IMG/VR virus record: IMGVR_UViG_2660238271_000001
Direction: 5' to 3' (one strand)
Length of the DNA stretch: 64,000 bases
Origin: an uncultured virus (IMG/VR IMGVR_UViG_2660238271_000001)
Taxonomy: Duplodnaviria; Heunggongvirae; Uroviricota; Caudoviricetes
This document shows positions 49,622 to 64,000 of the stretch, piece by piece; the stretch's first letter is position 1; the number at the start of each line of letters is the position of its first letter. A model generated the notes under the pieces. That model saw nothing but the letters and a program-made list of their open reading frames with translations, was not told where the DNA came from and did no database searches. The position numbers and the translations under genes were made by a program.

Positions 49622-50017
49622 ATGAGCAAAAATTACACGCCGGAAAAGCGGGAGGAAATACAGCGCCGCATAACAGAACTGGTGCGGAAGCATGGCCGTA
49701 TGACGCTTACGGAGCTGAGGAGGATGACGGGGTTAACCATATATTCGACCCGTCACTACCTGGACAAGGCGGAACGTTGCGGGGATGTGTACCAGGCGGG
49801 CAAAAGGGGGATTTTTCCGTCGGAAGCGGCTTTTCGTGTCTGGTGTGAAAAGCAGTCTGACGCCAGAGTCGAGCGATTTCTGAAAACGCCGGAGCGCGTG
49901 GTGAAACCCTACGACAGGCATCAGAACACTATCTGTGCGGAATGCAGAAAAAGCGAGTACATGCAGCGGGTACTGGCATTTTACAGGGGAAATAACGGAG
50001 CAGTAAAAACGATATGA
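49622..50017 (+). CDS. DUF977-family protein
   Basis: Homologous to 10170-10565. Confidence 0.75.
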   Translation: MSKNYTPEKREEIQRRITELVRKHGRMTLTELRRMTGLTIYSTRHYLDKAERCGDVYQAGKRGIFPSEAAFRVWCEKQSDARVERFLKTPERVVKPYDRHQNTICAECRKSEYMQRVLAFYRGNNGAVKTI

Positions 50018-50304
50018 AGGTTTATATCGCAGGGCCGATGACAGGCTATGAAAATTTTAACCGTGAGGCATTTCACCGGGCGGAAAAAGCTCTGAAACGA
50101 GAAGGGCACACCGTATTAAATCCGGCAGTTCTCCCGAACGGATTAACGCAGGCGCAGTACATGGACATTTGCATGGCAATGATTCGTAGTGCAGATGCGA
50201 TTTACATGCTGTGGGGATGGCTGTGTTCGGCAGGCGCAAGGGCAGAACTGGCGCTGGCGGAAAAGCTGGGGCATGAGGTTATTTTTCAGGAGGTGATGCA
50301 GTGA
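50014..50304 (+). CDS. DUF4406-family protein
   Basis: VYIAGPMTG..FNREAF...VLNPA...SAGARAE. Confidence 0.8.
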   Translation: MKVYIAGPMTGYENFNREAFHRAEKALKREGHTVLNPAVLPNGLTQAQYMDICMAMIRSADAIYMLWGWLCSAGARAELALAEKLGHEVIFQEVMQ

Positions 50305-50591
50305 ATATCGATACAACAATAACGATTGATACCGCTTTGAATACTGGTCTGGCCCTGCTCGGTTGGTTTTATATCATGTTCAGTGCGGGGAAGTGGGCGG
50401 CATCTGTTTTTCTAAAGCAGTGGGAAAAGCGCCGCAAACAGACGCAGCAGCAGAAGGCAATGAATGCGTTTTTTGAGGCCTTCGATATCGACCGCATAGA
50501 GCCGGGAGAACCAACCCGCGTTATCCCCGTAGGTGATGTCGTGATTTTTGTATACCGGAGTGAAAAAAATGAACAGGAGGCGGCGCAGTGA
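50301..50591 (+). CDS. DUF4752-like membrane protein
   Basis: LNTGLALLGWFYIM. Confidence 0.65.
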   Translation: MNIDTTITIDTALNTGLALLGWFYIMFSAGKWAASVFLKQWEKRRKQTQQQKAMNAFFEAFDIDRIEPGEPTRVIPVGDVVIFVYRSEKNEQEAAQ

Positions 50592-50974
50592 GCAAAATTC
50601 ATAATCCCGTAGTGCTCATTAACAAGCCAGATAATAACGCTTGGGTCGTTGCTGTAACGGATGGTAGCCAGAATTATCAGGACGCCAGGCTAATGGCAAG
50701 CATGGAACTTGATATAACCGGGGATAGTGCTGATACATGGAGTCGTGTTGGTTTTTACATGGCGGCTGAAATTGAAGTGCTACGCCAACGCATCGCAGAA
50801 TTGACAGATGCACTTACGCAAATGATTAATGCGCATCAAACCACAATTCGTTTTGGTTATGAACGCATTACTGAATGTGGTGGTGACTGCGATTCGCCAG
50901 AAAAGATGATTTCAGAAGACCCGGATATCAGAATGGCAGAGGCTGTTTTGAGAGCGGGAATCAAATCTGAATAA
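50588..50974 (+). CDS. Hypothetical (Ead/Ea22-like C-terminus)
   Basis: Coupled ORF; GYERITECGGDCD. Confidence 0.55.
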   Translation: MSKIHNPVVLINKPDNNAWVVAVTDGSQNYQDARLMASMELDITGDSADTWSRVGFYMAAEIEVLRQRIAELTDALTQMINAHQTTIRFGYERITECGGDCDSPEKMISEDPDIRMAEAVLRAGIKSE

Positions 50975-51138
50975 TTAAATTCAGCACTGTAAATAAAAAT
51001 TAATCCTTAACCGGAGGGATTTCTGCACCCTCAATACATCAGGAGGCCNNNNNNNNNNNNNNNNNNNNCCCGAAAGGGCGGTAATGAAAAATGACTGAAT
51101 TAACCAAAGAGCAATTAGATGCTCAACGGAGGTAAATC

Positions 51139-51711
51139 GTGAAAGAGAATCAAATCCGAGAACTGGTAAACGAGCTGCGCGATATTGCTATTGAGTATCA
51201 CGGCACACAACAGTTACGTGAACGAATTGTACGCACAGTTCGCGACGCCCTGCATCATGACTTAGAAAAACTAAACCAACCTGTAAGCCAAACTTACGAG
51301 TTGCCACAAACGCAGTTTGAACAGGTTGCTGACCTCTACGAAATGCAATTTGATGATGGGCGCACCTGCGAATTCCACACAGATGGAGCAAAAGCTGCTC
51401 AGTGGTTGCTCGCATGCGATGGTAATAAGGTGCAGGAATACGTCAGGCTTGAGCGCTATCAGGAGGCTGTAATTGGCAACTCTCCGGTAATTCCGGATGG
51501 TTGGATAAGCTGTAGTATTGCCGTTCCAGTTGATTTTTGCGATGTGATTCTTCATGACGATCTCGGTAACGTATTTCCCGGTTTCTGGGATAAGGTTTTT
51601 TGTTCCATTCGTGGCGGGAATAAGATGACTTTTGTGGACAAAGACGGCGTAGAAGTAGAGAACGCAACCCACTGGATGCCGTTACCGGAACCGCCGCAGG
51701 AGGTGAAGTGA
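51139..51711 (+). CDS. DUF551-domain protein
   Basis: PDGWISCS...THWMPLPEPPQEVK. Confidence 0.8.
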   Translation: MKENQIRELVNELRDIAIEYHGTQQLRERIVRTVRDALHHDLEKLNQPVSQTYELPQTQFEQVADLYEMQFDDGRTCEFHTDGAKAAQWLLACDGNKVQEYVRLERYQEAVIGNSPVIPDGWISCSIAVPVDFCDVILHDDLGNVFPGFWDKVFCSIRGGNKMTFVDKDGVEVENATHWMPLPEPPQEVK

Positions 51712-52106
51712 TGGACGATAACAGCGATAACGTTATTCAACTGGTGCAGCCAAAATCAGAGGAGGAAGGGCTTCTCAACGTTGTGATAACCGACAGGAAA
51801 AGCGGCGAGCAAAAATGCTGTCAGCATATCCGTACAACAATTTCAGAAGTGAATCGTACGATTATCTGCAACCGGTGCGGATTGGCTTTAGATCCGTTCG
51901 GGCTTATTCTCGACCGTGCGAGAAACGGCGAAAACATCGTGTCTGAGATTAAATCACTCTATGCAAGACGGGATGCTCTTCGTGAATCTGTGGCAAAACT
52001 TGAACGCGAAGAGAAAAACGCAAAGGCGCGGCTGCGAGCAGCCAGGACTGCAATACTGTATGCGGAAAATGATCTTAAAAATATTGAGCAGGAGGTGAAT
52101 CAATGA
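51708..52106 (+). CDS. Hypothetical protein (CxxC plus coiled coil)
   Basis: CNRCG..LDPF. Confidence 0.65.
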   Translation: MMDDNSDNVIQLVQPKSEEEGLLNVVITDRKSGEQKCCQHIRTTISEVNRTIICNRCGLALDPFGLILDRARNGENIVSEIKSLYARRDALRESVAKLEREEKNAKARLRAARTAILYAENDLKNIEQEVNQ

Positions 52107-52186
52107 GCTGGCCTGATGCATTCGCAACGGCAGGAACCGCAATAGCGGCGGCGCTGGTGGTGTATTCGATTTGCCGTTGGGGATAA
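52103..52186 (+). CDS. 27-aa membrane peptide
   Basis: GGAGGT RBS, coupled start; MSWPDAFATAGTAIAAALVVYSICRWG. Confidence 0.5.
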   Translation: MSWPDAFATAGTAIAAALVVYSICRWG

Positions 52187-52393
52187 AAACGGTTTGCGGG
52201 AAAAGGAGAGTTAAGTAGAATTGTTGCGGGTGCTTGAGGCTGTCTGCCTTAAGCGCTTGCTGAGAGGTAGGCAGAGAAAAGCCCCAGTTAACATTACGCG
52301 TCCGGCAAGACGCTTAACATTAATCTGAGGCCCTATCTATGCGACACATAGAGATTAGCCTCTTACGTGCCGAAAGGCAAGGAGAAGCAGGCT

Positions 52394-52549
52394 ATGAAGC
52401 AGCAAAAGGCGATGTTAATCGCCCTGATCGTCATCTGTTTAACCGTCATTGTGACGGCACTGGTAACGAGGAAAGACCTCTGCGAGGTACGAATCCGAAC
52501 CGGCCAGACGGAGGTCGCTGTCTTCACAGTTTACGAACCTGAGGAGTAA
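52394..52549 (+). CDS. hok: Hok/Gef type I toxin (mok-like leader ORF and probable sok antisense upstream)
   Basis: MKQQKAMLIALIVICLTVIVTALVTRKDLCEVRIRTGQTEVAVF. Confidence 0.9.
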   Translation: MKQQKAMLIALIVICLTVIVTALVTRKDLCEVRIRTGQTEVAVFTVYEPEE

Positions 52550-52821
52550 GAGACCTGGNNNNNNNNNNNNNNNNNNNNNNNNNNNNNNNNNNNNNNNNNN
52601 NNNNNNNNNNNNNTTTTTTGTTACCCGTAAAATAAAAATTCATAAAAATGATCAACTTTCAGATTGGTTGCGCAACAAGTGAAAAATGTCCTTGTTGGTG
52701 AACATAAAATAAGCAAATTTATATAATGAAATAAATAGTCGCAGTGTTTATATTTCCCGCCTCAACAGAAATCGCGTTGAAATCGCACATTTTCATTTTT
52801 CCTTAGCTGTCAGGAGGCATT

Positions 52822-53016
52822 TTGAAAATCCCCACCAATTTAATACCAGGGTTTTATGAGAGTACACGGCCTGTCGTATTGTTCCGGAATAAGGATGGCA
52901 CATTCAAATCAGGGTTTGTACTGCGTGGCGATGAGTTCGTAGTGAATATTTCGTTGCTGAGGGACGGTTATAATTTTGCAGGGCTTTCAGTTGCCGGGCA
53001 TCCGAAACGATCGTAA
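52822..53016 (+). CDS. Hypothetical phage protein
   Basis: GGAGG RBS then TTG. Confidence 0.55.
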   Translation: MKIPTNLIPGFYESTRPVVLFRNKDGTFKSGFVLRGDEFVVNISLLRDGYNFAGLSVAGHPKRS

Positions 53017-53179
53017 AATTGCTGCCGACCTGAACAGTCTGCTGATTAACACCGTGCCACTGAGAAAATCTGATGGCACAGATAACCAATATCAAATTCC
53101 CCCTTACGCTGTCACTGCCTGCTGGCGGTGATGGCGTTTTGTCGTATCGGAACACCAGCCACCTTTGCGGAGGTGCTCA

Positions 53180-53380
53180 GTGAAAAAAAGCTGGTTCCAT
53201 TACCCGAATTGCACCACAGAAGAAGCCGAAGAGCTGATGGCGACCTATCGCCGTCGCGGTGTGAGGGTTGAGCGAAGCCTGAATTTCGACTGTCTCACAT
53301 GGACCATATCGGCACTGCTTCCTGAGTCTGCAAGAGCTCCGCGTCCGTCCCGTACTTATCAGCAGAGTTTCTGGAGGTAG
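53180..53380 (+). CDS. Conserved small nin-region protein
   Basis: Paralog of 15978-16172. Confidence 0.65.
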   Translation: MKKSWFHYPNCTTEEAEELMATYRRRGVRVERSLNFDCLTWTISALLPESARAPRPSRTYQQSFWR

Positions 53381-53381
53381 C

Positions 53382-54435
53382 GTGCGTGCATTACTGCGCC
53401 CTGCGTCTGTGCCGGAAATGGGAGTGGTGGTAATAAAGCCCGGCAGGGAGCTGATGCCGCTGTTTGCTGGTGGACGAGTGCTGGTGGAGCCGGAACCGGA
53501 AAGTATGAAGTCGCTGCCGTCAGGCGCGGNNNNNNNNNNNNNNNNNNNNNNNCCAGCCGCTGGCAGATGATAAATCGCTGCTTCCGTTTTTTACCAGTGA
53601 GCGTGTGATACATGCCGCCGGGGGCGTCGGGGCGCTGTCGGACTGGCTCCTGCGTCATGTTAAATCCTGCCAGTGGCCTCATGGTGATTACCACCACCAC
53701 GAAACGGTTATCCATCGTTACGGTGCCGGAGCGATGGTGTTGTGCTGGCACTGTGATAATCAGTTGCGTGACCAGACGTCTGAATCACAGGAACAACTGA
53801 CAAACCAGAATCTGATCACATGGCTGACTGATACCGTTCGTTACGCGATAAACGGTTCTCAGGAGCGGGAGCTGTCGCTTGCCGAATTGTGCTGGTGGGC
53901 AGTTTGTCATGATGTTGCCGGAGCCGTTCCGGATGGCGTGATTCGCCGTTCGCTGGGATTACCGGCTGAAGAAATCCGTTCCGTATACCGTGAAAGCGAT
54001 ATTGTGCCGGAAGAGCAGACCGCCACCAGCATTCTGAAGCAGCGCACAAAAAGTATTGTGCCGCAGCACCTCCACCAGCAACCAGTCCCTCAACAAAAAA
54101 GGGTGGTGCCCCTCACTGTCGATCCGGATTCACCGGAAAGCTTCATGCTGCGCCCGAAACGCCGTCGGTGGGTCAATGAGAGATATACCCGCTGGGTTAA
54201 GACACAGCCGTGTGTGTGCTGTGGTAAGCCAGCCGACGATCCCCATCACCTGATTGGTCACGGTCAGGGAGGGACAGGGACAAAAGCACACGACCTGTGG
54301 GTGTTGCCTTTGTGCAGAAAGCATCACGACGAGCTACATGCGCACCCGCTGTCATTTGAAGAGGAGTACGGCTCCCAGATTGACTTAATTTTTCGTTTTT
54401 TAGATTACGCGCTGGCAGTTGGTGTACTGGGATGA
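53382..54435 (+). CDS. DUF968-family protein (spans a gap)
   Basis: MRALLRP...CWHCDNQLR...CVCCGKPADDPHHLIGHG. Confidence 0.82.
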
Positions 54436-54446
54436 GGAGGTAAGGA

Positions 54447-54821
54447 GTGAAATCTGTTCAGTTTGTTTTACCGTATCCGCCGTCGGTGAACACGTACTGG
54501 CGTCGCCGGGGTTCGCAATATTACATCGCCGATACCGGAAAACGATACAGAAAAGACGTGGCTCACATTGTCCGTCAGTTGGGGTTGCGGATGAATCTGG
54601 CGGGAAGACTGGCGATAAAAATCATAGCAGATCCGCCGGATAATCGTCGTCGTGACCTGGATAACATACTGAAAGCGCCACTGGATGCGCTGACACATGC
54701 AGGCGTTCTTGTCGACGATGAGCAGTTTGATGAGATTCATATTGTACGGGGGCAATCATCGCCGGGCGGGCGGCTGGGGGTGAAGATTTACGAAATCACA
54801 GGTGATAGTAATGGCGCGTGA
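54447..54821 (+). CDS. rusA: RusA Holliday-junction resolvase
   Basis: [31 protein letters not shown]. Confidence 0.92.
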
Positions 54822-55197
54822 TATTCAGATGGTTCTGGAGCGGTGGGGGGCATGGGTGGCAAATAATCATGAGGATGTTGCCTGGTCGTCGATAGCCGCA
54901 GGGTTTAAGGGGCTTATCCCGTCGAAGGTGAAATCACGTCCGCAATGTTGTGACGATGACGCGATGATCATTTGCGGTTGTATGGCCCGCCTGAACAAAA
55001 ATAACAGCGATTTGCATGATTTGCTGGTGGATTATTACGTTGGCGGGATGACGTTTATGGCATTGGCGCGGAAGCATGGTTGTTCTGATGGGTACATAGG
55101 TAAAAAGTTGCAAAAAGCCGAAGGCGTGGTTGAGGGGATGTTAATGATGCTGGGTATCCGGCTGGAAATGGACAAACACGTCGAGCGAGGCATGTAG
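54811..55197 (+). CDS. Late antiterminator Q
   Basis: [13 protein letters not shown]...[10 protein letters not shown]...CCDDD. Confidence 0.88.
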
Positions 55198-55234
55198 GCG
55201 GTTGACCTGATGCATCGTCCGGGGCTATATTCTC

Positions 55235-55450
55235 CGCACGCCAGCAAAATCTGGCGTCGGGGGNNNNNNNNNGGGATTGGAACCCCGGACAAGAAACCGC
55301 GACAACGACACGCCGCGAGCGTGTTTTTTATTGTCGTATGCACTCGCACACCTGAATTATGGTGAGGCGTATGGGGCCGACTTCGGTCGGGCCGGTTGGT
55401 TTCTCCGGTAGTTCCAACCCTGTACGTCTCACCACCCGATGATTGGAACC
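55235..55450 (+). ncRNA. IsrK/C4-like structured antisense RNA module
   Basis: Promoter TTGACC..TATATT; CGCCAG..CTGGCG hairpin; GATTGGAACC boxes (55275, 55441) complementary to GTTCCAACC (55411); stem TGGTGAGGCGTA...TACGTCTCACCA. Confidence 0.65.
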
Positions 55451-55491
55451 TGACGGTGGTGATAATTAAGAAACCATTCAAGGGCGTCTTT

Positions 55492-56049
55492 ATGACCACT
55501 CAAATCTCTGTCGAAACTATTTCCCCGATTACCCATAACCAGATCCCTGTTATTACTACCGAGCTTTTGGCGCACCTTTACGGTACAGAACCAGTTCGCA
55601 TCCAGCAAAATCACAAACGCAACACTGATCGTTTTATAGAAGGGAAACACTTTTTCAAGGTCATGGGTGAGGAGCTAAAAATTTTGCGACTATCTTTAAG
55701 AGAGTCACAAATCTCTACCAAAACCCGTTCCCTAATCCTCTGGACAGAACGCGGCGCAGCCCGACACGCAAAAATGCTCGAGACTGAGCAGGCGTGGGAG
55801 GTGTTCGAAAAACTTGAGGACTGCTATTTCAATCCAAAATGCCCACCAGCAAAACATGAACCAATGATCGAAGGTGACGGGCGCACATTGCTAATCCACT
55901 TCGACGAACATGGAAACGTAGAGTTCACTGAAAAAGTTCCTAAGGATGCAATGGTATGCACTGCCGAACGGTTCAGGTTATACCTGGAACAACATGGCTG
56001 GATCGTTGCACGTAAAGAGCAATTGGTGGAAAGGCTGATGCGGCTTTAA
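55492..56049 (+). CDS. ORF6N-domain (antirepressor-like) protein
   Basis: VITTELLAHLYG...LILWTERGAARHAKMLET. Confidence 0.85.
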   Translation: MTTQISVETISPITHNQIPVITTELLAHLYGTEPVRIQQNHKRNTDRFIEGKHFFKVMGEELKILRLSLRESQISTKTRSLILWTERGAARHAKMLETEQAWEVFEKLEDCYFNPKCPPAKHEPMIEGDGRTLLIHFDEHGNVEFTEKVPKDAMVCTAERFRLYLEQHGWIVARKEQLVERLMRL

Positions 56050-56096
56050 GTACGGAAGCCCCNNNNCCCCGCCTTTATAGCGGGGCTGAATGCTCA

Positions 56097-56642
56097 TTAC
56101 TGAACTACTTTTAACCCACTAAATTTAAAAATATACTCTGGCTCTGTTACTTTACCATAGAGAGTCATGCTTGATTCAAGGATGCAGTCTTTTGAATTAG
56201 GGATAAAACGCCCTGAAAATGAAACCATATCACCAGGTTTTAAGTCAGAGGCTACTGAGAAAATTTCAGAGTCAGGGTTGATAAGAGTATGATGACTGGA
56301 ATCGGAGAAAGCGTTATTCCAGGTTTTAACTTCAATGTCTGGTGCTATCTCCAAAGCCAGCACACCGTAACCATCACTATTGGCGGAAACAGTTTTTACT
56401 GTACCAACCCAATTTTTAACTTTCTTGTCTTTGCTCAAAGTTTTGCAAACCGCCTTGTCTCGTTTTGCTTTTATTCCGCCCAACTTCATGTCGTTATCAA
56501 CGCCTTTAGCTGATGAAATTGCATTTGAGACTACCTCGATGAACTTTTCCTGCTGCTCAGGTATCTGGTAAGCAAAGGCTGGTGTCTGGAGGATAGTAGC
56601 TGTGCACGCGATGGCTATGATTTTTGTGAAAACACTATTCAT
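56097..56642 (-). CDS. Secreted AT-rich moron protein of unknown function
   Basis: Signal peptide, 181 aa, opposite strand to the phage genes. Confidence 0.75.
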   Translation of the reverse strand: MNSVFTKIIAIACTATILQTPAFAYQIPEQQEKFIEVVSNAISSAKGVDNDMKLGGIKAKRDKAVCKTLSKDKKVKNWVGTVKTVSANSDGYGVLALEIAPDIEVKTWNNAFSDSSHHTLINPDSEIFSVASDLKPGDMVSFSGRFIPNSKDCILESSMTLYGKVTEPEYIFKFSGLKVVQ

Positions 56643-56776
56643 ATTTGCACCTAAAACAAAAAAACTAATGAAACAAAAACGCCCAAGTTATGAGCGCGCT
56701 TAGATTACCCATCCCTCAAAACCTTATCAATAGTGTGAATTTGAGGTTGTATTGTTCATTAGGTTTGTTTGGGGGC

Positions 56777-56853
56777 TTTACGTACGTAAAAATCTGGATA
56801 TCCTGTTAAGAGTGGTTACTACGCCACACCGCTTAAACCCGCCATTGTGCGGG
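56777..56853 (+). promoter_or_regulatory. Probable late promoter pR' and tR' hairpin
   Basis: TTTACGTACGTAAAAATCTGGATATCCTGTTAAGAGTGG motif, then ACCCGC..GCGGG. Confidence 0.5.
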
Positions 56854-57039
56854 NNNNNNNNNNNNNNNNNNNNNNNNNNTTTTGTCGTTTCTGCAATACA
56901 GAAAGATATTCGCCAGTCCAATTTGGATTGTTAAACATGGTGTGTTTTAAATATGTTTTATGCACATTAAATTAATGTGAAATGTTTTGATAAAATAAAA
57001 ATACAATAATAACTTTACGTTCATTGACACAATGAATTG

Positions 57040-57729
57040 TTGAAACGCCTGTTCTGACTCGTATTATTTTCATCGGTCCGAAGGGGGTGATGGATAACCT
57101 TCTTCTGCCCCCGAGGATCAGAGAGCCGGTTTTTTTGTGCATCCTGGAAAATTCACGTGAAGGAACCGGCTCTCAACCAGAGAAGAAGAGGCGTTTTTTT
57201 CGATACAACTATCGTAATTACTCCGTTGGTGGTGCTGGCACGTAAAGTGTGGATAGTGCGTTTATGATGAGTGCATGATGTATATCCTGATACAGCATCC
57301 GGTTTGTGGGGGCGGAGAAGCCCCGATGGACTCAGTACCACAATTTTTTATTGCATTCAGATAGCGTACTGTGAATCGGATAAATGAGAATGTCAGTGTG
57401 TTGGTAATGCGGGGTTCTCAGTGCGCTATCTGAATGCAGTGAAATCTGCTCTGAGCAGAGCTAAACAGCATTGTCTGCGTTTGATCAATTTGTAGCGGGT
57501 CATAGTGGCTGACTAAAGACTCTCCGGGGCATCCCGGCACTGCATTTATTACTAAAAATCTTCATATCACAGAGGCAGAACATACGGAAAATTCTTGTCA
57601 ATACAACACCTGACACAGCAATATTTTTCGGGAGTCCCCGGTGCCTCAGGTTTTTTATCGCCATCAATAAAACTATAATAATAACTCCATGTTATGATTA
57701 CCACCTCTCTCATGAGGTGGTTTTTTTTT
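57040..57729 (+). ncRNA. Putative long structured ncRNA unit 1 (promoter to terminator)
   Basis: TTGAAA-16-TATTAT; series of stems; terminator ACCACCTC..GAGGTGG-T9; no credible ORF. Confidence 0.6.
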
Positions 57730-57867
57730 ATTCCCGCAAATTGCAGGAATAAGATGGAGTCATCAGAATATGCCCTGATTGTATTTTGTCTTTTTTGAAT
57801 TAATGCAAAACATTTGGAATAAATAAACATCTAATGATAAATTTACATTTCTTGACGCGACTGCTTG

Positions 57868-58520
57868 TTGAAATGAAATTTTTATGATTTATTATTGTCG
57901 ACAGTTTGGCGGAGGTGACTGGCAGATTTCTCCACTCCGTCGAATAAGAGAGTTGATTCTTTATACCTCCTGAGTCGTCTGATTAAAGAATCATCACTCG
58001 ATTTGGCATTAAGGTGAAATTAAGATTCCATTGATATAGGTATCGTTCTTACTCTTTGTGGTGCAGGCATATGGATATGGGGTGGTTACATTAATGTTCC
58101 TTTAATTTATCCTCCTGATTCGGAGTGAATCAGGCACCGCAATTTTTTTACTGCATTCAGATGGCGTATTGCAAAAAACGGTCATTACTTGTGCCACTGT
58201 CTGATGCTCTTGTAACACATACGGGATTTGTGGTACGCCATCTGAATGCAGTGAAACCCACATAAAGTGGGGCATAAACAGGATGTGAGGTGCGTTTATT
58301 TTCGTCTGCGGGTCATGGTGACTGACCAACGGCCCTCCGGAGATAATTCCGGCACTGCATTATTTATTGAGGTGTTCCCCAGTGCGGGGGTGACCGGGAA
58401 AAATGTTCTGCCGATGGTCACAGACACATACCGGGCTAATATGTGTTTTCGGGAGGCACCCGACACCTCTACTGTTTTTCCAGTCGATAACTATAAAACA
58501 TGCTTCAGATATTGAGCACC
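57868..58520 (+). ncRNA. Putative long structured ncRNA unit 2 (diverged tandem copy; 3' end in gap)
   Basis: Same promoter geometry and stem order as unit 1, with compensatory changes. Confidence 0.6.
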
Positions 58521-59003
58521 NNNNNNNNNNNNNNNNNNNNNNNNNNNNNNNNNNNNNNNNNNNNNNNNNNNNNNNNNNNNNNNNNNNNNNNNNNNNNNNN
58601 NNNNNNNNNNNNNNNNNNNNNNNNNNNNNNNNNNNNNNNNNNNNNNNNNNNNNNNNNNNNNNNNNNNNNNNNNNNNNNNNNNNNNNNNNNNNNNNNNNNN
58701 NNNNNNNNNNNNNNNNNNNNNNNNNNNNNNNNNNNNNNNNNNNNNNNNNNNNNNNNNNNAAAAATTTCAGGCATCCCTTTCGGGAGGTCGTCATTATTTT
58801 ACTGATAACAAAATAAGACCGGAACCCCGGAAACAACCTTATTTTCCGGTAAGGCTTATTTTATTCCCCGCGCCACGCCCGGCGCACATTCATAACTAAC
58901 CACGGAGCCTTTCAGGGGTGAGCTTACGGGATGGTCAGTGTGACTTTCTCTGTGGGCTGGTCACCCCCGGGCGCAGGCTCACCCACTAAAAGGAAAAGTC
59001 ACG

Positions 59004-59429
59004 ATGCTTGGTATTTTCAGAAAGAAAACCCGCAAGGCAATTGTTGAAGTGAAGAAGATGGAGAACCGGGATGCGGTGGAGGCGACCGTCTGGGGCGCAT
59101 ATTCCATTGCATACGCAGACGGCACCTGTGACGCGAAAGAAATTGCAGTGCTGGAGAAAACCATCGCGGCACTTCCTGCCTTTGCGTCGTTCTCCGGTGA
59201 GATTGCCCAGATGAGTGCAAACATTCGCGCCCGCTATGAGGCGTCACCGCGTAGCGCGAATGCTCAGGCACTGCGTGAGCTGGCTGATGTGGCAGGAACA
59301 GCAGAAGCGGTTGATGTGCTGTGCCTGTGTCTGGATATCGCAGACCAGGACGGCATCGGCCCGGATGAAGAGGCACAGCTCAAGAAAATTGCGCAGGCGC
59401 TGCAGTTACCGCTGGAGCAGTACCTGTGA
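59004..59429 (+). CDS. TerB-family protein
   Basis: IAYADGTCDAKE...DIADQDGIGPDEEAQLKKIAQAL. Confidence 0.8.
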   Translation: MLGIFRKKTRKAIVEVKKMENRDAVEATVWGAYSIAYADGTCDAKEIAVLEKTIAALPAFASFSGEIAQMSANIRARYEASPRSANAQALRELADVAGTAEAVDVLCLCLDIADQDGIGPDEEAQLKKIAQALQLPLEQYL

Positions 59430-59578
59430 AAAGTGCGCGCCCTGTGCTGGCTGCCGTCCTGCTGTTTCTGGTAGTGGCAGTGGATTTTACCGGGCGCCTG
59501 ATGTCGTTTCTGGCGGATGGCGTGCTGGTGGCTGGCGTGGTGGCGCTGGTGTGGCCGCTGCTGCGGGCGCAGAAATAA
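59426..59578 (+). CDS. Small two-TM protein (DUF3927-like)
   Basis: GTGA coupling to terB; VAVDFTGRLMSFLADG. Confidence 0.65.
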   Translation: MKSARPVLAAVLLFLVVAVDFTGRLMSFLADGVLVAGVVALVWPLLRAQK

Positions 59579-59667
59579 CATCACACAAAAGGCATCTGCG
59601 GGTGCCTTTGACGGGGTGTTGTTTTCACGGGCCGGTGATGGCCCTTTTTTATTGACGGGAGAAACAC

Positions 59668-60060
59668 ATGTCTGCTGAACCCTTATCCGGGACGGGCACG
59701 GCGGTGGCGCTCGGCGGGGCGACAGTATTCGGGCTGCTGACCAACACGGATTTCGGGATTGTTTTTGGCGCATTTGCAGGAGCGCTGTTTATTGTCACGG
59801 TGCCGAAAGAGCTGTCCCCCTGGCGGATGGCGGCGCATTTTCTGGTGTCATTTATCGTCGGCGTGCTGGGGGCGGGTGTACTGGCCTCGTTCCTGTCCCG
59901 CCTTGCTGACTACAACGGTAAACCGCTGGATGCGCTGTGTGCAGTGGTGATGTCGGTGCTGTCAGTGAAATTTCTGACCTTCATTCATGACCAGGACATT
60001 TCATCGCTGACCGGGGTTTTTTCACGGATGCGGGGAGGAGGGAGTGGTCATGGAAAGTAA
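59668..60060 (+). CDS. Putative holin
   Basis: Multi-TM; GIVFGAFAGALF. Confidence 0.78.
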   Translation: MSAEPLSGTGTAVALGGATVFGLLTNTDFGIVFGAFAGALFIVTVPKELSPWRMAAHFLVSFIVGVLGAGVLASFLSRLADYNGKPLDALCAVVMSVLSVKFLTFIHDQDISSLTGVFSRMRGGGSGHGK

Positions 60061-60331
60061 TCTGACCGGCACACTGAATGCGGGCCTGTGCCTGGTGACA
60101 GTGCTGGCCCTTTTTCTCTACCGCCGGAACGGCGCCAGATACAAACCGGGGATAGCCTGGCTGTCATACCTGCTGATGCTGGGTTATGCGCTGGTTCCGT
60201 TCCGTTTTCTGGCCGGACATTACCCGTCTTCATCCTGGCCTGTGGTGCTGATGAACGCGCTGTTCTGCGGGCTGGTGCTGTGGGCGCGGGGTAATGTGTC
60301 GAAAATACTTTCACTGCTGAGGCTGCGATGA
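60050..60331 (+). CDS. Holin-family protein
   Basis: 3 TM; YRRNGARYKP...ARGNVSKI. Confidence 0.78.
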   Translation: MESNLTGTLNAGLCLVTVLALFLYRRNGARYKPGIAWLSYLLMLGYALVPFRFLAGHYPSSSWPVVLMNALFCGLVLWARGNVSKILSLLRLR

Positions 60332-60906
60332 AACCGAAGAACGAAATTTTTGATGAAATTCTGGGTAAGGAAGGCGGCTACGTCAACCATCCGGACGATA
60401 AAGGCGGGCCGACAAAATGGGGTATTACGGAAAAAGTTGCCCGCGCCCACGGATACCGCGGTGATATGCGCAATTTAACCCGCGGACAGGCGCTGGAAAT
60501 TCTGGAGACCGACTACTGGTACGGTCCCCGCTTTGACCAGGTGGCGAAGGCCTCGCCGGATGTTGCCGCCGAACTGTGTGACACGGGCGTGAACATGGGG
60601 CCGTCGGTGGCGGCGAAAATGTTGCAGCGCTGGCTGAACGTGTTCAACCAGGGCGGGAAGCTGTATCCGGACATGGATACGGACGGGCGCATCGGGCCGA
60701 GAACCCTTAACGCGTTACGTGTTTATCTGGAAAAGCGCGGTAAGGATGGCGAGCGTGTACTGCTGGTGGCACTGAACTGCACGCAGGGAGAGCGCTATCT
60801 GGAGCTGGCGGAAAAGCGGGAGGCTAACGAGTCGTTTGTCTACGGCTGGATGAAAGAGCGCGTTTCTGTGCCTGTTTACAGTGAAGTCGGTAAATCTACT
60901 TTGTAG
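60328..60906 (+). CDS. GH108 endolysin with peptidoglycan-binding domain
   Basis: EGGYVNHPDDKGGPTKWGIT; DGRIGPRT. Confidence 0.92.
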   Translation: MKPKNEIFDEILGKEGGYVNHPDDKGGPTKWGITEKVARAHGYRGDMRNLTRGQALEILETDYWYGPRFDQVAKASPDVAAELCDTGVNMGPSVAAKMLQRWLNVFNQGGKLYPDMDTDGRIGPRTLNALRVYLEKRGKDGERVLLVALNCTQGERYLELAEKREANESFVYGWMKERVSVPVYSEVGKSTL

Positions 60907-61061
60907 CGAGTGCGGTATTAAACTCAACTGAAAAGCAAAACCCCGACTGCGGGAACAGGCCGGGGTTTTCAGTTTTCACGTCAAAGAGGAAATTGTGATC
61001 AGTGAGTACGGAAAAAATCCTCGTGGGAAAGTATAAAAGATTCTTTTTGAGGTTGTCCATT

Positions 61062-61175
61062 ATGAAAGGCATAGAAGTGGAAACTCCCGCGAGCCTTGAT
61101 CTGACGAGGGCGGCAGCCTTTGCAATTCGCCTTGTGGCGGTCGCTGTTCTGATTTGGGCTGTACGTTGGTGGTGA
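61062..61175 (+). CDS. 37-aa membrane peptide
   Basis: GAGG RBS; C-terminal TM ending RWW. Confidence 0.55.
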   Translation: MKGIEVETPASLDLTRAAAFAIRLVAVAVLIWAVRWW

Positions 61176-61176
61176 T

Positions 61177-61359
61177 ATGACGCGGAAACACTGGACACAC
61201 AGAATGCCGCGAATGGCGGCGAAATGGGCACTGGTAGCGATACTGGTGCCTTTTTTACTGGTGGGGTGCGCCAGCCTGGATAAGGCGCGCCAGATATTCG
61301 AAGCTGCCGGGCAGGTCTGCCGGATTATTGATGGTGTCCGGCAATGTGTGCAGAACTGA
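61177..61359 (+). CDS. Small lipoprotein
   Basis: Lipobox LLVGC. Confidence 0.65.
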   Translation: MTRKHWTHRMPRMAAKWALVAILVPFLLVGCASLDKARQIFEAAGQVCRIIDGVRQCVQN

Positions 61360-61573
61360 TCATGCATGTCAGCAGAATATTTTGCTGAGAAATGACAATG
61401 GCGCCGCTGTCCGGAAAGCATGAAATTCTGCTGCGTGCGATGTTTTTGAATAATAAATGCTGATTTCGATGTTCACGATTCAAATATCGATCACCGGTAT
61501 TACAGCAGCCCTTCAGTGAAGGGCTGCGATAATGCTGGTGGTCTGAATATCTCCATTGAAAACAGGAGGCGAA

Positions 61574-61921
61574 ATGTCTGAGCGAAACTATGAAGCAATT
61601 GGGCGCTGCGTTGTTCTGAGAAAGCGTATTGAAGAAAATCTTTGCGCCCTGCAGGAAATAAAATCGGAAATTATTTCTGCTGAATCTCCGTTTTTATTAG
61701 GTGAGCGGTTGCATGGTGGTTATTCACTGGTGTTGAGCATAGAAACGAATGCAAATCGCTGTCGTGAGTTACTTGATAGCACAATAAAGCTTGTCGATGA
61801 ACATAATCAGTATGCCGTGGCAGCGGGACTGGGTGCGATCTGTATCTTCCCCGAGGGAGAAGCGTTTAATAGCAAGAGAACGAAATTCCATGCCATCACG
61901 AATTCCCCGCGCCTGTCGTAA
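61574..61921 (+). CDS. Hypothetical protein
   Basis: GGAGG RBS; NYEAIGRC. Confidence 0.6.
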   Translation: MSERNYEAIGRCVVLRKRIEENLCALQEIKSEIISAESPFLLGERLHGGYSLVLSIETNANRCRELLDSTIKLVDEHNQYAVAAGLGAICIFPEGEAFNSKRTKFHAITNSPRLS

Positions 61922-62240
61922 GCGTGGATGTGCAGGCACAACAACAGACAGATCTGGCTACTGCGATAAACATCGTGGTGAAGGCTGGGCACAGCATCAG
62001 CGCGGACTGAGTCGCCACCAGCGTGGCTATGGCTCAAAATGGACAGTGATCCGTGCCCGTATTCTGAAGCGCGATAAAGGCCTGTGCCAGTTGTGCCTGC
62101 GTGCTGGTGTGGTAAGCGAGGCAAGAACCGTCGACCACATCATCCCGAAAGCGCATGGCGGTACGGATGCAGACAGTAATCTGCAGAGTCTGTGCTGGCC
62201 CTGCCACAAGGCGAAAACAGCGCGTGAACGCATCAACTGA
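61890..62240 (+). CDS. HNH endonuclease (terminase cofactor type)
   Basis: CQLC..VDHIIPKAHGG..NLQSLCWPCHKAKT. Confidence 0.9.
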   Translation: MPSRIPRACRKRGCAGTTTDRSGYCDKHRGEGWAQHQRGLSRHQRGYGSKWTVIRARILKRDKGLCQLCLRAGVVSEARTVDHIIPKAHGGTDADSNLQSLCWPCHKAKTARERIN

Positions 62241-62387
62241 TAATTGTTCTCACCTGTAAGGGAGGGGCGGGTCAAATCCCTGCAACCTGTGCCGTTCGGG
62301 ACCGCCCGCCTACCCTTCCTCGCATCGCCGCAGGTTTGAAAACTTTTTTTGGGAATGTGATTAAATGATTGATAGGTAAAATCGATT

Positions 62388-62885
62388 ATGTCAGGACCTC
62401 AGAAAACCCCGCCACGCCTGCATTTGATTCGGGGTAACCCCTCAAAACGCCCCGTTAAAGCCCCCAAAAAAACCGCTAAAAAGGATGAAAAAGGTCTCCC
62501 TAAAATTCCGCAACATTTAGGGGCGCAGGGGAAGTACTGGTTCAGGCGAATGGCGGAAGAACTGGATGCGGAAGGGATCATTTCTCAGCTCGATGCCCGG
62601 GCGCTTGAGTTACTGGTGGAAGCCTACACCGAATACCGGCATCACTGCGAAATACTCGATGTTGAGGGATATACCTACCGCACTGAGACGCAGAACGGCG
62701 ATGTGATGATCAAGGCACACCCGGCTGCGGCAATGAAAGCGGATGCCTGGAAGCGAATCCGGGCGATGCTTGCAGAATTTGGTATGTCGCCAGCGAGCCG
62801 GGCCAAAGTGAATACCTCTGGGCCGGATGATATTGATCCGCTGGCGGNNNNNNNNNNGGCGGAGATTTTAAAAGCGAGAGACTGA
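62388..62885 (+). CDS. Terminase small subunit, P27 family
   Basis: LIRGNPSKRP; HPA...EFGMSPASR. Confidence 0.9.
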   Translation: MSGPQKTPPRLHLIRGNPSKRPVKAPKKTAKKDEKGLPKIPQHLGAQGKYWFRRMAEELDAEGIISQLDARALELLVEAYTEYRHHCEILDVEGYTYRTETQNGDVMIKAHPAAAMKADAWKRIRAMLAEFGMSPASRAKVNTSGPDDIDPLAXXXXAEILKARD

Positions 62886-64000
62886 TGGCAAAAGTGGCTG
62901 ACGGGATACGCTACGCCGAACGTGTTGTTGCAGGAGAGATTGTTGCCGGCGAATTTGTCCATCTGGCGTGCCAGCGTTTCCTGGATGATCTGAAGTATGG
63001 CGAAGAGCGGGGGATTTATTTCAGTGAGCCCCGCGCACAGCACATCCTGAATTTCTATAAATTTGTGCCCCATGTGAAAGGGGCGCTGGCAGGCCAGCCA
63101 ATTGAACTCATGGACTGGCATGTATTTATCCTCATCAATATTTTTGGTTTTGTTATTCCGCTGGTTAATGAAGAGACCGGGGAAGTGGTCATGCGCAGCG
63201 ATGGCAGCGGACGCCCGGTGATGGTGCGTCGGTTCCGGACGGCATACAACGAAGTCGCCCGTAAAAATGCAAAATCAACGCTGTCATCGGGTATCGGTCT
63301 GTATATGACCGGGGCGGATGGTGAAGGCGGGGCTGAGGTGTATTCAGCCGCAACCACACGCGACCAGGCCAGAATCGTGTTTGAAGACGCCAAAAATATG
63401 GTCAGAAAAGCCCGGTCAACACTCGGGCGGTTGTTTGATTTCAACAAGCTGGCAATTTACCAGGAGCAGAGCGCATCGAAATTTGAGCCGCTTTCCTCGG
63501 ATGCAAATAACCTGGACGGTCTGAACATCCACTGCGCCATTATCGATGAGCTGCATGCACATAAAACCCGTGATGTGTGGGACGTTCTGGAAACGGCGAC
63601 CGGCGCCCGTCTGCAGTCCCTGTTATTCGGTATTACCACGGCAGGCTTTAACAAGGAGGGGATTTGTTACGAGCAGCGTGATTACGCCATCAAGGTGCTG
63701 CGAGGCTATAACAGCGATGTGGAAGGCGCGGTAAAAGACGACTCCTACTTTGCGATCATTTACACGCTCGATGAAGGGGATGACCCGTTTGATGAAACGG
63801 TCTGGCAGAAAGCGAATCCCGGCCTGGGCATCTGTAAACGCTGGGATGATCTGCGTCGTCTGGCGAAAAAAGCGAAGGAGCAGGTTTCTGCGCGGGTGAA
63901 TTTTTTTACCAAGCACATGAATGTGTGGGTCACTGCCGAATCTGCCTGGATGGATATGATTAAGTGGGAGAAGTGCGAATACATCGCTCCACAGCATGAG
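62885..64000 (+). CDS. Terminase large subunit (partial, runs off window)
   Basis: Read manually: MAKVADGIRYAE...VARKNAKST...IIDELHAH...ITTAG. Confidence 0.93.
   Translation, partial: MAKVADGIRYAERVVAGEIVAGEFVHLACQRFLDDLKYGEERGIYFSEPRAQHILNFYKFVPHVKGALAGQPIELMDWHVFILINIFGFVIPLVNEETGEVVMRSDGSGRPVMVRRFRTAYNEVARKNAKSTLSSGIGLYMTGADGEGGAEVYSAATTRDQARIVFEDAKNMVRKARSTLGRLFDFNKLAIYQEQSASKFEPLSSDANNLDGLNIHCAIIDELHAHKTRDVWDVLETATGARLQSLLFGITTAGFNKEGICYEQRDYAIKVLRGYNSDVEGAVKDDSYFAIIYTLDEGDDPFDETVWQKANPGLGICKRWDDLRRLAKKAKEQVSARVNFFTKHMNVWVTAESAWMDMIKWEKCEYIAPQHE

Follow-up and report, generated by a model that had tools for sequence, protein, structure and literature searches.

In enterobacteria, small RNAs (sRNAs) usually arise from a promoter of their own or are cut out by RNase E. 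Phage transcripts are known to carry RNase III processing hairpins, such as the early and late R sites of T7, the lambda N-leader and sib. RNase III cleaves duplex RNA some two helical turns long, and a near-perfect duplex of 26-32 pairs is a classic substrate of the enzyme.

Several small RNAs of lambdoid prophages have been described. STnc100 is presented in the accessible text of two reports as a prophage sRNA related to PasD and encoded between Q and the lysis genes (bioRxiv 10.64898/2026.05.13.724894; PMC12370729). The StxS and lambda 6S-type short RNAs are transcribed from the constitutive late promoter PR' (PMC7547250, accessible portion), and the Shiga-toxin phage Phi24B yields 24B_1, a microRNA-size RNA with a hairpin precursor of ~80 nt (PMC5488031, accessible portion). 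In the passages accessible to us on STnc100/PasD and on RNase III in lambdoid prophages, there is no mention of a hairpin such as the one described below.

The window analysed here, a stretch of 64,000 nucleotides from an uncultured virus of the IMG/VR collection, contains two long hairpins located in two tandem, diverged non-coding units of about 810 bp each, which belong to a lambdoid prophage. As with the RNase III sites of T7 and lambda, these are long hairpins standing between functional modules of a phage transcript, with a selected stem and a free loop. The T7 and lambda sites differ in that they part mRNAs and usually have an internal loop directing a single cut, whereas the window hairpins combine a nearly perfect stem of 26-32 pairs with an apical region of 24-52 nt, lie between non-coding modules and are putative rather than known cleavage sites. 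We propose, with moderate confidence, that each is probably an RNase III-type processing hairpin which matures a downstream sRNA from read-through transcripts; both the enzyme and the cleavage are deduced from the features presented below. What is most likely new is the joining of a phage hairpin of this type, with its presumed cleavage, to a known family of prophage sRNAs.

Upstream of the units lies the gene of a Q antiterminator (PF06530, 54802-55197), and downstream are found the genes for TerB, DUF3927, two holins and a GH108 lysozyme. An immI-like module directly follows Q (55225-56049) and includes c4-a1b1/isrK (57.6 bits) and the C4 antisense RNA (76.2 bits), after which comes an ORF6N-domain antirepressor within the same interval. 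Between the antirepressor and unit 1, a 181-amino acid ORF with a signal-peptide-like N-terminus is present on the - strand (56097-56642), with no match in Pfam. Runs of N at 56855-56879 and 58522-58759 flank the units and mask the end of unit 2 as well as the junction with TerB; the unit 2 counterpart of the module at 57662-57729 is among the masked parts. The following features can be distinguished:

57040-57067, + strand: predicted promoter of unit 1 (TTGAAA-16-TATTAT, 10 of 12 consensus matches)
57075-57273, + strand: leader RNA of unit 1 with a leader hairpin, an abundant short transcript
57346-57444, + strand: long hairpin 1, formed in the minimum-free-energy fold, with a T-run at its foot starting at 57344
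57431-57548, + strand: STnc100-like four-way-junction domain A of unit 1 (Rfam STnc100 18.4 bits), from the fold without the 5' arm
57572-57657, + strand: second structured domain of unit 1, predicted by folding, with a T-run at its end (57652-57657)
57662-57729, + strand: short AU-rich, sRNA-like module in which a terminator scan places a strong intrinsic terminator (57700-57721 plus T8)
57868-57895, + strand: predicted promoter of unit 2 (TTGAAA-16-TATTAT), in the same relative place as in unit 1
57903-58042, + strand: leader RNA of unit 2, the most abundant species of the region
58056-58150, + strand: structured domain of unit 2, predicted from sequence, closed by 58056-58064/58135-58143
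58146-58256, + strand: long hairpin 2 (arms 58146-58175 and 58227-58256, loop of 51 nt), formed in the full-length fold
58245-58361, + strand: STnc100-like domain A of unit 2 (Rfam STnc100 21.1 bits, E 0.057), from the fold without the 5' arm
58369-58479, + strand: STnc100-like domain B of unit 2 (closing helix 58369-58375/58463-58469, T-run 58475-58479)

A repeat finder recovered both inverted repeats proposed in the initial annotation, at 57346-57375/57415-57444 and 58146-58175/58227-58256 (arms of 30 nt, 87% Watson-Crick). When G.T pairs and at most one mismatch were allowed, a stem scan extended hairpin 1 to 32 pairs (57346-57377/57413-57444, loop of 35 nt) and gave 30 pairs for hairpin 2 (58146-58175/58227-58256, loop of 51 nt). 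The same scan applied to 24 other prophage loci of ~3.2 kb each returned no stem longer than 21 pairs, so the stems of the window exceed what is expected by chance. Folds tested against shuffled sequences gave z = -3.9 for unit 1 and -6.2 for unit 2. The initial annotation had stated that the stems deviate from Watson-Crick pairing by wobbles alone, and indeed the seven non-Watson-Crick pairs of the stems as first drawn, three belonging to unit 1 and four to unit 2, all read G.T on the + strand, equivalent to A.C on the - strand. The compensatory exchange of A-T for G-C it had reported between the units is likewise present (AGATAGCG/CGCTATCT vs AGATGGCG/CGCCATCT). Between the two units, 23 of 26 and 22 of 26 positions of the hairpin arms are identical, which is above the mean column identity of the whole units (75%). 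A covariance model of the hairpin (R1) scored hairpin 1 at 72.9 bits on the + strand and 38.2 on the -, and hairpin 2 at 68.5 and 39.3 bits, respectively. Both stem-loops are real, evolutionarily conserved RNA hairpins.

For the study of covariation, 31 distinct hairpins from IMG/VR proviruses and E. coli prophages, out of 34 references, were aligned with MAFFT, the arms being free of gaps. The three references left out were L111, whose hairpin is the same as that of unit 2 of the window, L114, a variant of L108 with one extra T in the T-run, and L124, a copy of unit 3 (see below) shorter by 12 nt at the base of its 5' arm, with a 23-pair stem retained. With the 27 pairs of unit 2 as the structure, 91.1% of the 827 cells can pair, compared with 33-53% when the partner is slid by one to three columns. 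Sixteen of the 27 pairs changed on both sides, and the cells with double changes numbered 97 against 27 +/- 4 in shuffles, none of 500 shuffles reaching as high a count; these figures overstate the independence of the data, since the aligned sequences are related to one another and one of them supplied the structure. Several columns hold three or four types of pair (e.g. AU 13, GC 10, CG 5 and UA 1). In a 28-pair model of the same 31 homologues, G.U occurs in 140 cells and A.C in 10, and the non-standard cells (61 of 868, i.e. the 10 A.C and 51 others) are clustered at two columns, as G.G, A.G and A.C. This clustering would fit a protein-recognition feature equally well.

Because G.U far outnumbers A.C, the functional strand is the + strand, as RNA or single-stranded nucleic acid. 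Scores of R1 on the homologues were 63-91 bits for the sense strand and 24-39 bits for the antisense strand. That the repeats act as + strand RNA rather than as a DNA palindrome, as first suggested from the wobbles of two stems, thus holds over 31 homologues, and the stranded reads presented below agree with it. A palindrome acting at the DNA level, as a cruciform, a recombination site or a protein-binding site, could account for arms that are more conserved than their surroundings; such a duplex DNA site is not expected to produce an asymmetry of 140 G.T to 10 A.C, the arms vary by compensatory substitutions with no fixed sequence, and the region is transcribed on the + strand. We therefore regard this alternative as extremely improbable.

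Other readings of the units were set aside. No T-run follows the 3' arm of either long hairpin on either strand and the terminator scan was silent over both; the long hairpin is therefore not an intrinsic terminator. A T-run does stand before the 5' arm, and in unit 2 the T7 run that follows the structured domain (58144-58150) doubles as the foot of hairpin 2. A coding function was rejected: the ORFs that cover the two hairpins share neither frame nor start nor end, and where unit 2 has an ATG in its 5' arm, unit 1 reads ATA. A tRNA reading of the units was also rejected, as ARAGORN found neither tRNA nor tmRNA genes in positions 50000-64000. The layout of the structured domains is nonetheless cloverleaf-like, with a hairpin abutting the 3' strand of the closing helix, and true tRNA genes adjoin the units in E. 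coli relatives.

The domains downstream of the hairpins resemble STnc100 (RF02076). The Rfam model matched 58217-58389 with 21.1 bits and 57434-57545 with 18.4 bits, both below its gathering score of 47, and these two weak matches occupy equivalent positions in units 2 and 1. A related E. coli unit (L088, 2474-2671) reached 36 bits (E 1.8e-6), also below 47, and in its alignment the first positions of the model fall on the 3' arm of the hairpin. Domain B of unit 2 is 75.9% identical to the domain of this E. coli unit over 103 nt. The search with the model and independent folds recovered the closing helix, the inner hairpins, a hairpin abutting the 3' strand of the closing helix and the terminal T-run of STnc100. 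The STnc100-like domains at 58245-58361, 58369-58469 and L088 2510-2620 fold as four-way junctions with a closing helix of 7-11 pairs. The short module at 57662-57729 showed a weak match to AgvB (21.9 bits vs a cut-off of 56) and almost no reads in the RNA-seq run X16.

With the Hfq-associated prophage sRNAs STnc100 and PasD, the window domains share the same helices, namely the closing helix, a C-rich/G-rich hairpin and a hairpin of the CGGGAGGCACCCG type next to the 3' strand of the closing helix. They also share the niche between Q and the holin genes near TerB and DUF3927, as given for Pas sRNAs in the accessible text of the preprint (bioRxiv 10.64898/2026.05.13.724894), and the occurrence of tandem copies, which are found at canonical loci too. 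They differ from them by scores of 18-36 bits against the gathering score of 47, by the arrangement of two domains in series and by the region immediately upstream: in place of the STnc100-type promoter directly before the closing helix, the window units have the long hairpin. Of 121 Enterobacteriaceae genomes sampled, 24 contain STnc100, frequently as tandem copies, and at 24 canonical loci no long stem adjoins the sRNA. PasD1 of E2348/69, which was placed by means of the RIL-seq table of PMC8550237, has no hairpin either; R1 gave no match for PasD1, the DLP12 locus of K-12 or four of the canonical STnc100 loci. Promoter-like -35/-10 elements were recognised by eye directly upstream of a canonical STnc100 (L067) and of PasD1. 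The window domains thus define a hairpin-linked branch of the STnc100/PasD family, below the score threshold of STnc100 and with a common architecture.

The transcription of the units was examined in reads of one run (X16) of one study, of which about 6% were used and whose strain has a unit 2 variant. The stretch is also contained as contigs in seven RNA libraries, in one piece in X1, X5 and X7, which indicates its presence and is no proof of transcription. In the stranded raw reads of X16, the first mate is nearly always on the - strand. Twenty-six molecules have their left (5') end at 57075, and 117 reads carry the adapter and a non-templated G immediately before 57900/57903. These ends are read as starts of + strand RNA at both predicted unit promoters.

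Along unit 2 the successive depths were 157, 582, 601, 247, 33, 11, 6, 34, 63, 83 and 34, where 11 and 6 correspond to the hairpin, and the depth fell to 1 after 58475. The leader stands at about 580-600, with reads reaching the adapter at 58018, 58040 and 58042, and across the structured domain 58056-58150 the depth drops from 33 to 11. Unit 1 has the same shape but is weaker (100 in the leader, 13 in the hairpin and 22 downstream); its leader depth of 35-100 declines to 20 by the hairpin. Position 57273 is the right end of 13 molecules, position 57641 an end of 6, and the depth is 0 in the bin 57650-57704. The leader is the main product, and a few percent of the transcripts pass the hairpin. 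Reads of the + strand cross both hairpins at a depth of 6-20.

In this respect the units recall StxS and 6S. As with these RNAs (PMC7547250, accessible portion), each unit opens with a constitutive promoter and an abundant short RNA with little read-through; the likeness concerns the leader and not the hairpin, and the window differs in having two such modules in tandem. A counterpart of the promoter-leader modules (57040-57273 and 57868-58042) lies directly after Q in the E. coli relative L089, and the module is also found upstream of tRNA genes in L088 and L090. It is a candidate PR'-type late promoter with its short constitutive RNA, tandemly duplicated here.

Downstream of hairpin 2, the reads outline an RNA of ~220 nt that extends from about 58255, at the 3' foot, to the T-run at about 58478, at a depth of 34-83, i.e. 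5-14 times that of the hairpin. The dip over the hairpin and the RNA beginning near its 3' foot would fit cleavage, as seen in one run; the dip could be technical, as stable hairpins are under-represented in RNA-seq, and the rise downstream of the hairpin in unit 1 is small (13 to 22). Among the 5' ends listed, at a threshold of 5 molecules and a fifth of the local depth, none clustered at the 3' foot of a hairpin.

The downstream sRNA could instead have its own promoter, with the hairpin acting as a barrier or insulator, or as a protein-binding site, between transcription units. The canonical members of the family are driven by promoters, the depth of unit 2 is maximal at 58365-58419, and a promoter-like site is indeed present at 58318-58347 (9 of 12 matches). 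This site, the sole one found after the hairpins, lies within domain A of unit 2; it has no counterpart in unit 1 or, as judged by eye, in unit 3, and the depth is already 34 in the bin 58255-58309, upstream of the start that the site implies. As to a barrier, the lack of a T-run after the hairpin on either strand means that it is not an intrinsic terminator. Such an arrangement seems unlikely to us, and the weak site could feed part of the downstream signal of unit 2.

The relation of the hairpin to the sRNA domain is also visible in the folds. Full-length folds of both units form the long hairpin; when the 5' arm is removed, the remnant of the 3' arm closes the sRNA domain, and a second domain of the four-way-junction type follows the first. 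In unit 1 the closing helix of domain A (57431-57441/57538-57548) takes the last 11 nt of the 3' arm of the hairpin, and in unit 2 the closing helix 58245-58253/58353-58361 vies with the long hairpin for the same arm. This competition is limited to the window type: in the E. coli types the sRNA helix begins about 12 nt past the hairpin, and a fold switch is therefore not a general property, the hairpin and closing helix having no overlap in those types.

The mutually exclusive pairing of the 3' arm in both window units would also suit a hairpin that remains uncut, either as a 5' structure that keeps 5'-end-dependent decay away from the sRNA or as a switch in folding, with the closing helix unformed until the hairpin is opened, and the invariance of the 3'-arm segment AATGCAGTGA in all seven window-type rows of alignment A3 fits such a double constraint. 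Against this, the depth of the unit 2 hairpin is 5-14 times below that of the downstream RNA, RNase III would not be expected to leave a near-perfect duplex of 26-32 pairs intact, and the overlap is absent in the E. coli types. An uncut hairpin is in our view rather unlikely.

As regards size, the comparison with an RNase III stem that had been drawn in the initial annotation is borne out by the 26-32 near-perfect pairs of the hairpins. RNase III substrates have at least about 20 duplex pairs; on the transcribed strand the window stems offer 30-32, G.U included.

The loops were a different matter. The initial annotation had found no evident similarity between them, and their global alignment is indeed non-significant (65 of 1000 shuffles score as well); a short similar stretch does adjoin the 3' arm, within a 38-nt direct repeat (79%). 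It had further proposed that the loops are variable inserts serving as guide or seed RNA, a view that would be refuted by loops as conserved as the stems across homologs. Within lineages they are: stem and loop identities are 0.94/0.93, 0.92/0.93, 0.95/0.90, 0.88/0.85 and 0.96/0.96, and 0.91/0.83 between unit 1 and unit 3. Between old lineages they are not, the stems being 0.43-0.91 identical and the loops 0.07-0.49 (0.80 and 0.24 for unit 1 vs unit 2, 0.91 and 0.49 for L087 vs L107). With this conservation within lineages, complementarity at chance level and the lowest read depth over loop and arms, the idea of exchangeable inserts is not supported. A faster drift of the loop is expected where selection holds the stem and leaves the loop freer, and such drift is not evidence for programmed inserts.

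A related possibility is that RNase III frees the upper hairpin, or its loop, as a small guide RNA with different targets for each unit. The stem has the size of an RNase III substrate, cutting of both strands would necessarily free an upper hairpin of about 60-90 nt, the loops diverge far more than the stems between old lineages, and a hairpin-derived 20-nt RNA, 24B_1, is reported for a Shiga-toxin phage in the accessible part of PMC5488031. The window hairpins resemble 24B_1 as lambdoid-phage hairpins with proposed cutting into a small RNA, and they draw sub-threshold matches to miRNA precursors; they differ in that 24B_1 belongs to another locus, the lom region, with no sequence relation found. 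The complementarity of the loops to the rest of the 64-kb window extends over 10-11 nt, the same as for shuffled loops; the loops are conserved like the stems within lineages, and their drift between lineages is expected anyway if selection acts on the stem alone. In X16 the depth is lowest over the loops and arms, and the RNA that accumulates is downstream of the hairpin, though standard RNA-seq would lose products of 20-90 nt. We consider a guide RNA of this kind quite improbable. The miRNA-precursor matches from Rfam (mir-29 with 29.4 bits vs 46.7, and others) were dismissed as generic matches to long hairpins, being sub-threshold and on both strands.

Searches of phage and E. coli collections with 56880-58520 by megablast and blastn gave no match. 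The region is absent from the nearest genome (G001) and from provirus G002, and 61 relatives yielded merely two short matches to it, at chance level. An exact-arm pattern recovered near-identical pairs of units on four IMG/VR contigs; applied to 185,579 species genomes, it gave 30 matches, all in unrelated phyla and close to the chance number estimated from pattern length and database size, which were discarded. A third variant, unit 3, was found through a conserved downstream motif and combines a hairpin and loop like those of unit 1 with a downstream part like that of unit 2. E. coli relatives were obtained by blastn (L087 and L088), with arms altered by compensatory substitutions and different loops, and L089 is a further one. 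A scan with a motif of the 3' domain retrieved 53 units from 49 IMG/VR loci, and 43 of these units are unique. At 85-105 or 190-222 nt upstream of the motif, a stem of 15 pairs or more is present in 41 of the 41 unique units whose upstream sequence is long enough, and the other two begin too near the edge of the locus for this check.

The long hairpin precedes small-RNA-like modules in all the units found, and these are usually sub-threshold relatives of STnc100/PasD. In the E. coli loci L144 and L145 the same hairpin stands ahead of a different short RNA with a terminator at its end, which makes the hairpin an independent module. The E. coli units come after tRNA genes. Of 5426 complete E. 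coli genomes, 328 contain one E. coli type of hairpin plus sRNA, 219 of these over 80% or more of the query, and this type also occurs in 2 of 50,697 phage records; there is no annotation beneath the match in the 12 matches listed. With strict filters, R1 gave no match on the Sakai chromosome, and at least one of 151 species genomes of the family was matched, 27 candidates being scored per genome.

These observations are consistent with the following order of events. Each unit begins with a constitutive promoter, an abundant short leader RNA and a structured domain with a T-run, followed by the long hairpin and then by one or two STnc100-like sRNA domains and a T-run or terminator. Most transcripts end ahead of the hairpin. 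In the few that read through, the double-strand-specific RNase III of the host may cut the near-perfect duplex of 26-32 bp, which would part the upstream RNA from the downstream sRNA and create the 5' end of the latter. In the window type, the cut would also free the last 9-11 nt of the 3' arm for the closing helix of the sRNA four-way junction. Selection acts on the stem, and the loops mostly drift.

If a covarying hairpin of ~30 pairs is set ahead of sRNAs in a tRNA/sRNA array for this purpose, it would constitute a distinct, RNase III-linked route of sRNA biogenesis, in a prophage region that often carries toxin and other accessory genes. A bolder and doubtful extension is that the hairpin is a portable maturation cassette in which the release of the sRNA is tied to read-through of the upstream terminator, for example by Q-modified late transcription, and in which the excised upper hairpin, with its lineage-specific apical region, survives as an additional small RNA that has targets or a protein partner of its own. 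If so, sRNA output would be coupled to prophage induction.

Two minor observations concern individual relatives. A CDS for a "hypothetical protein" is annotated over the hairpin and sRNA-like unit in L090 (2890-3288) and in ON470595 (31913-32218), and is probably a miscall in both. Finally, the IMG/VR loci L081 and L124 carry a copy of the unit 3 hairpin which lacks the 12 nt at the foot of the 5' arm, T-run included, and keeps a stem of 23 pairs.
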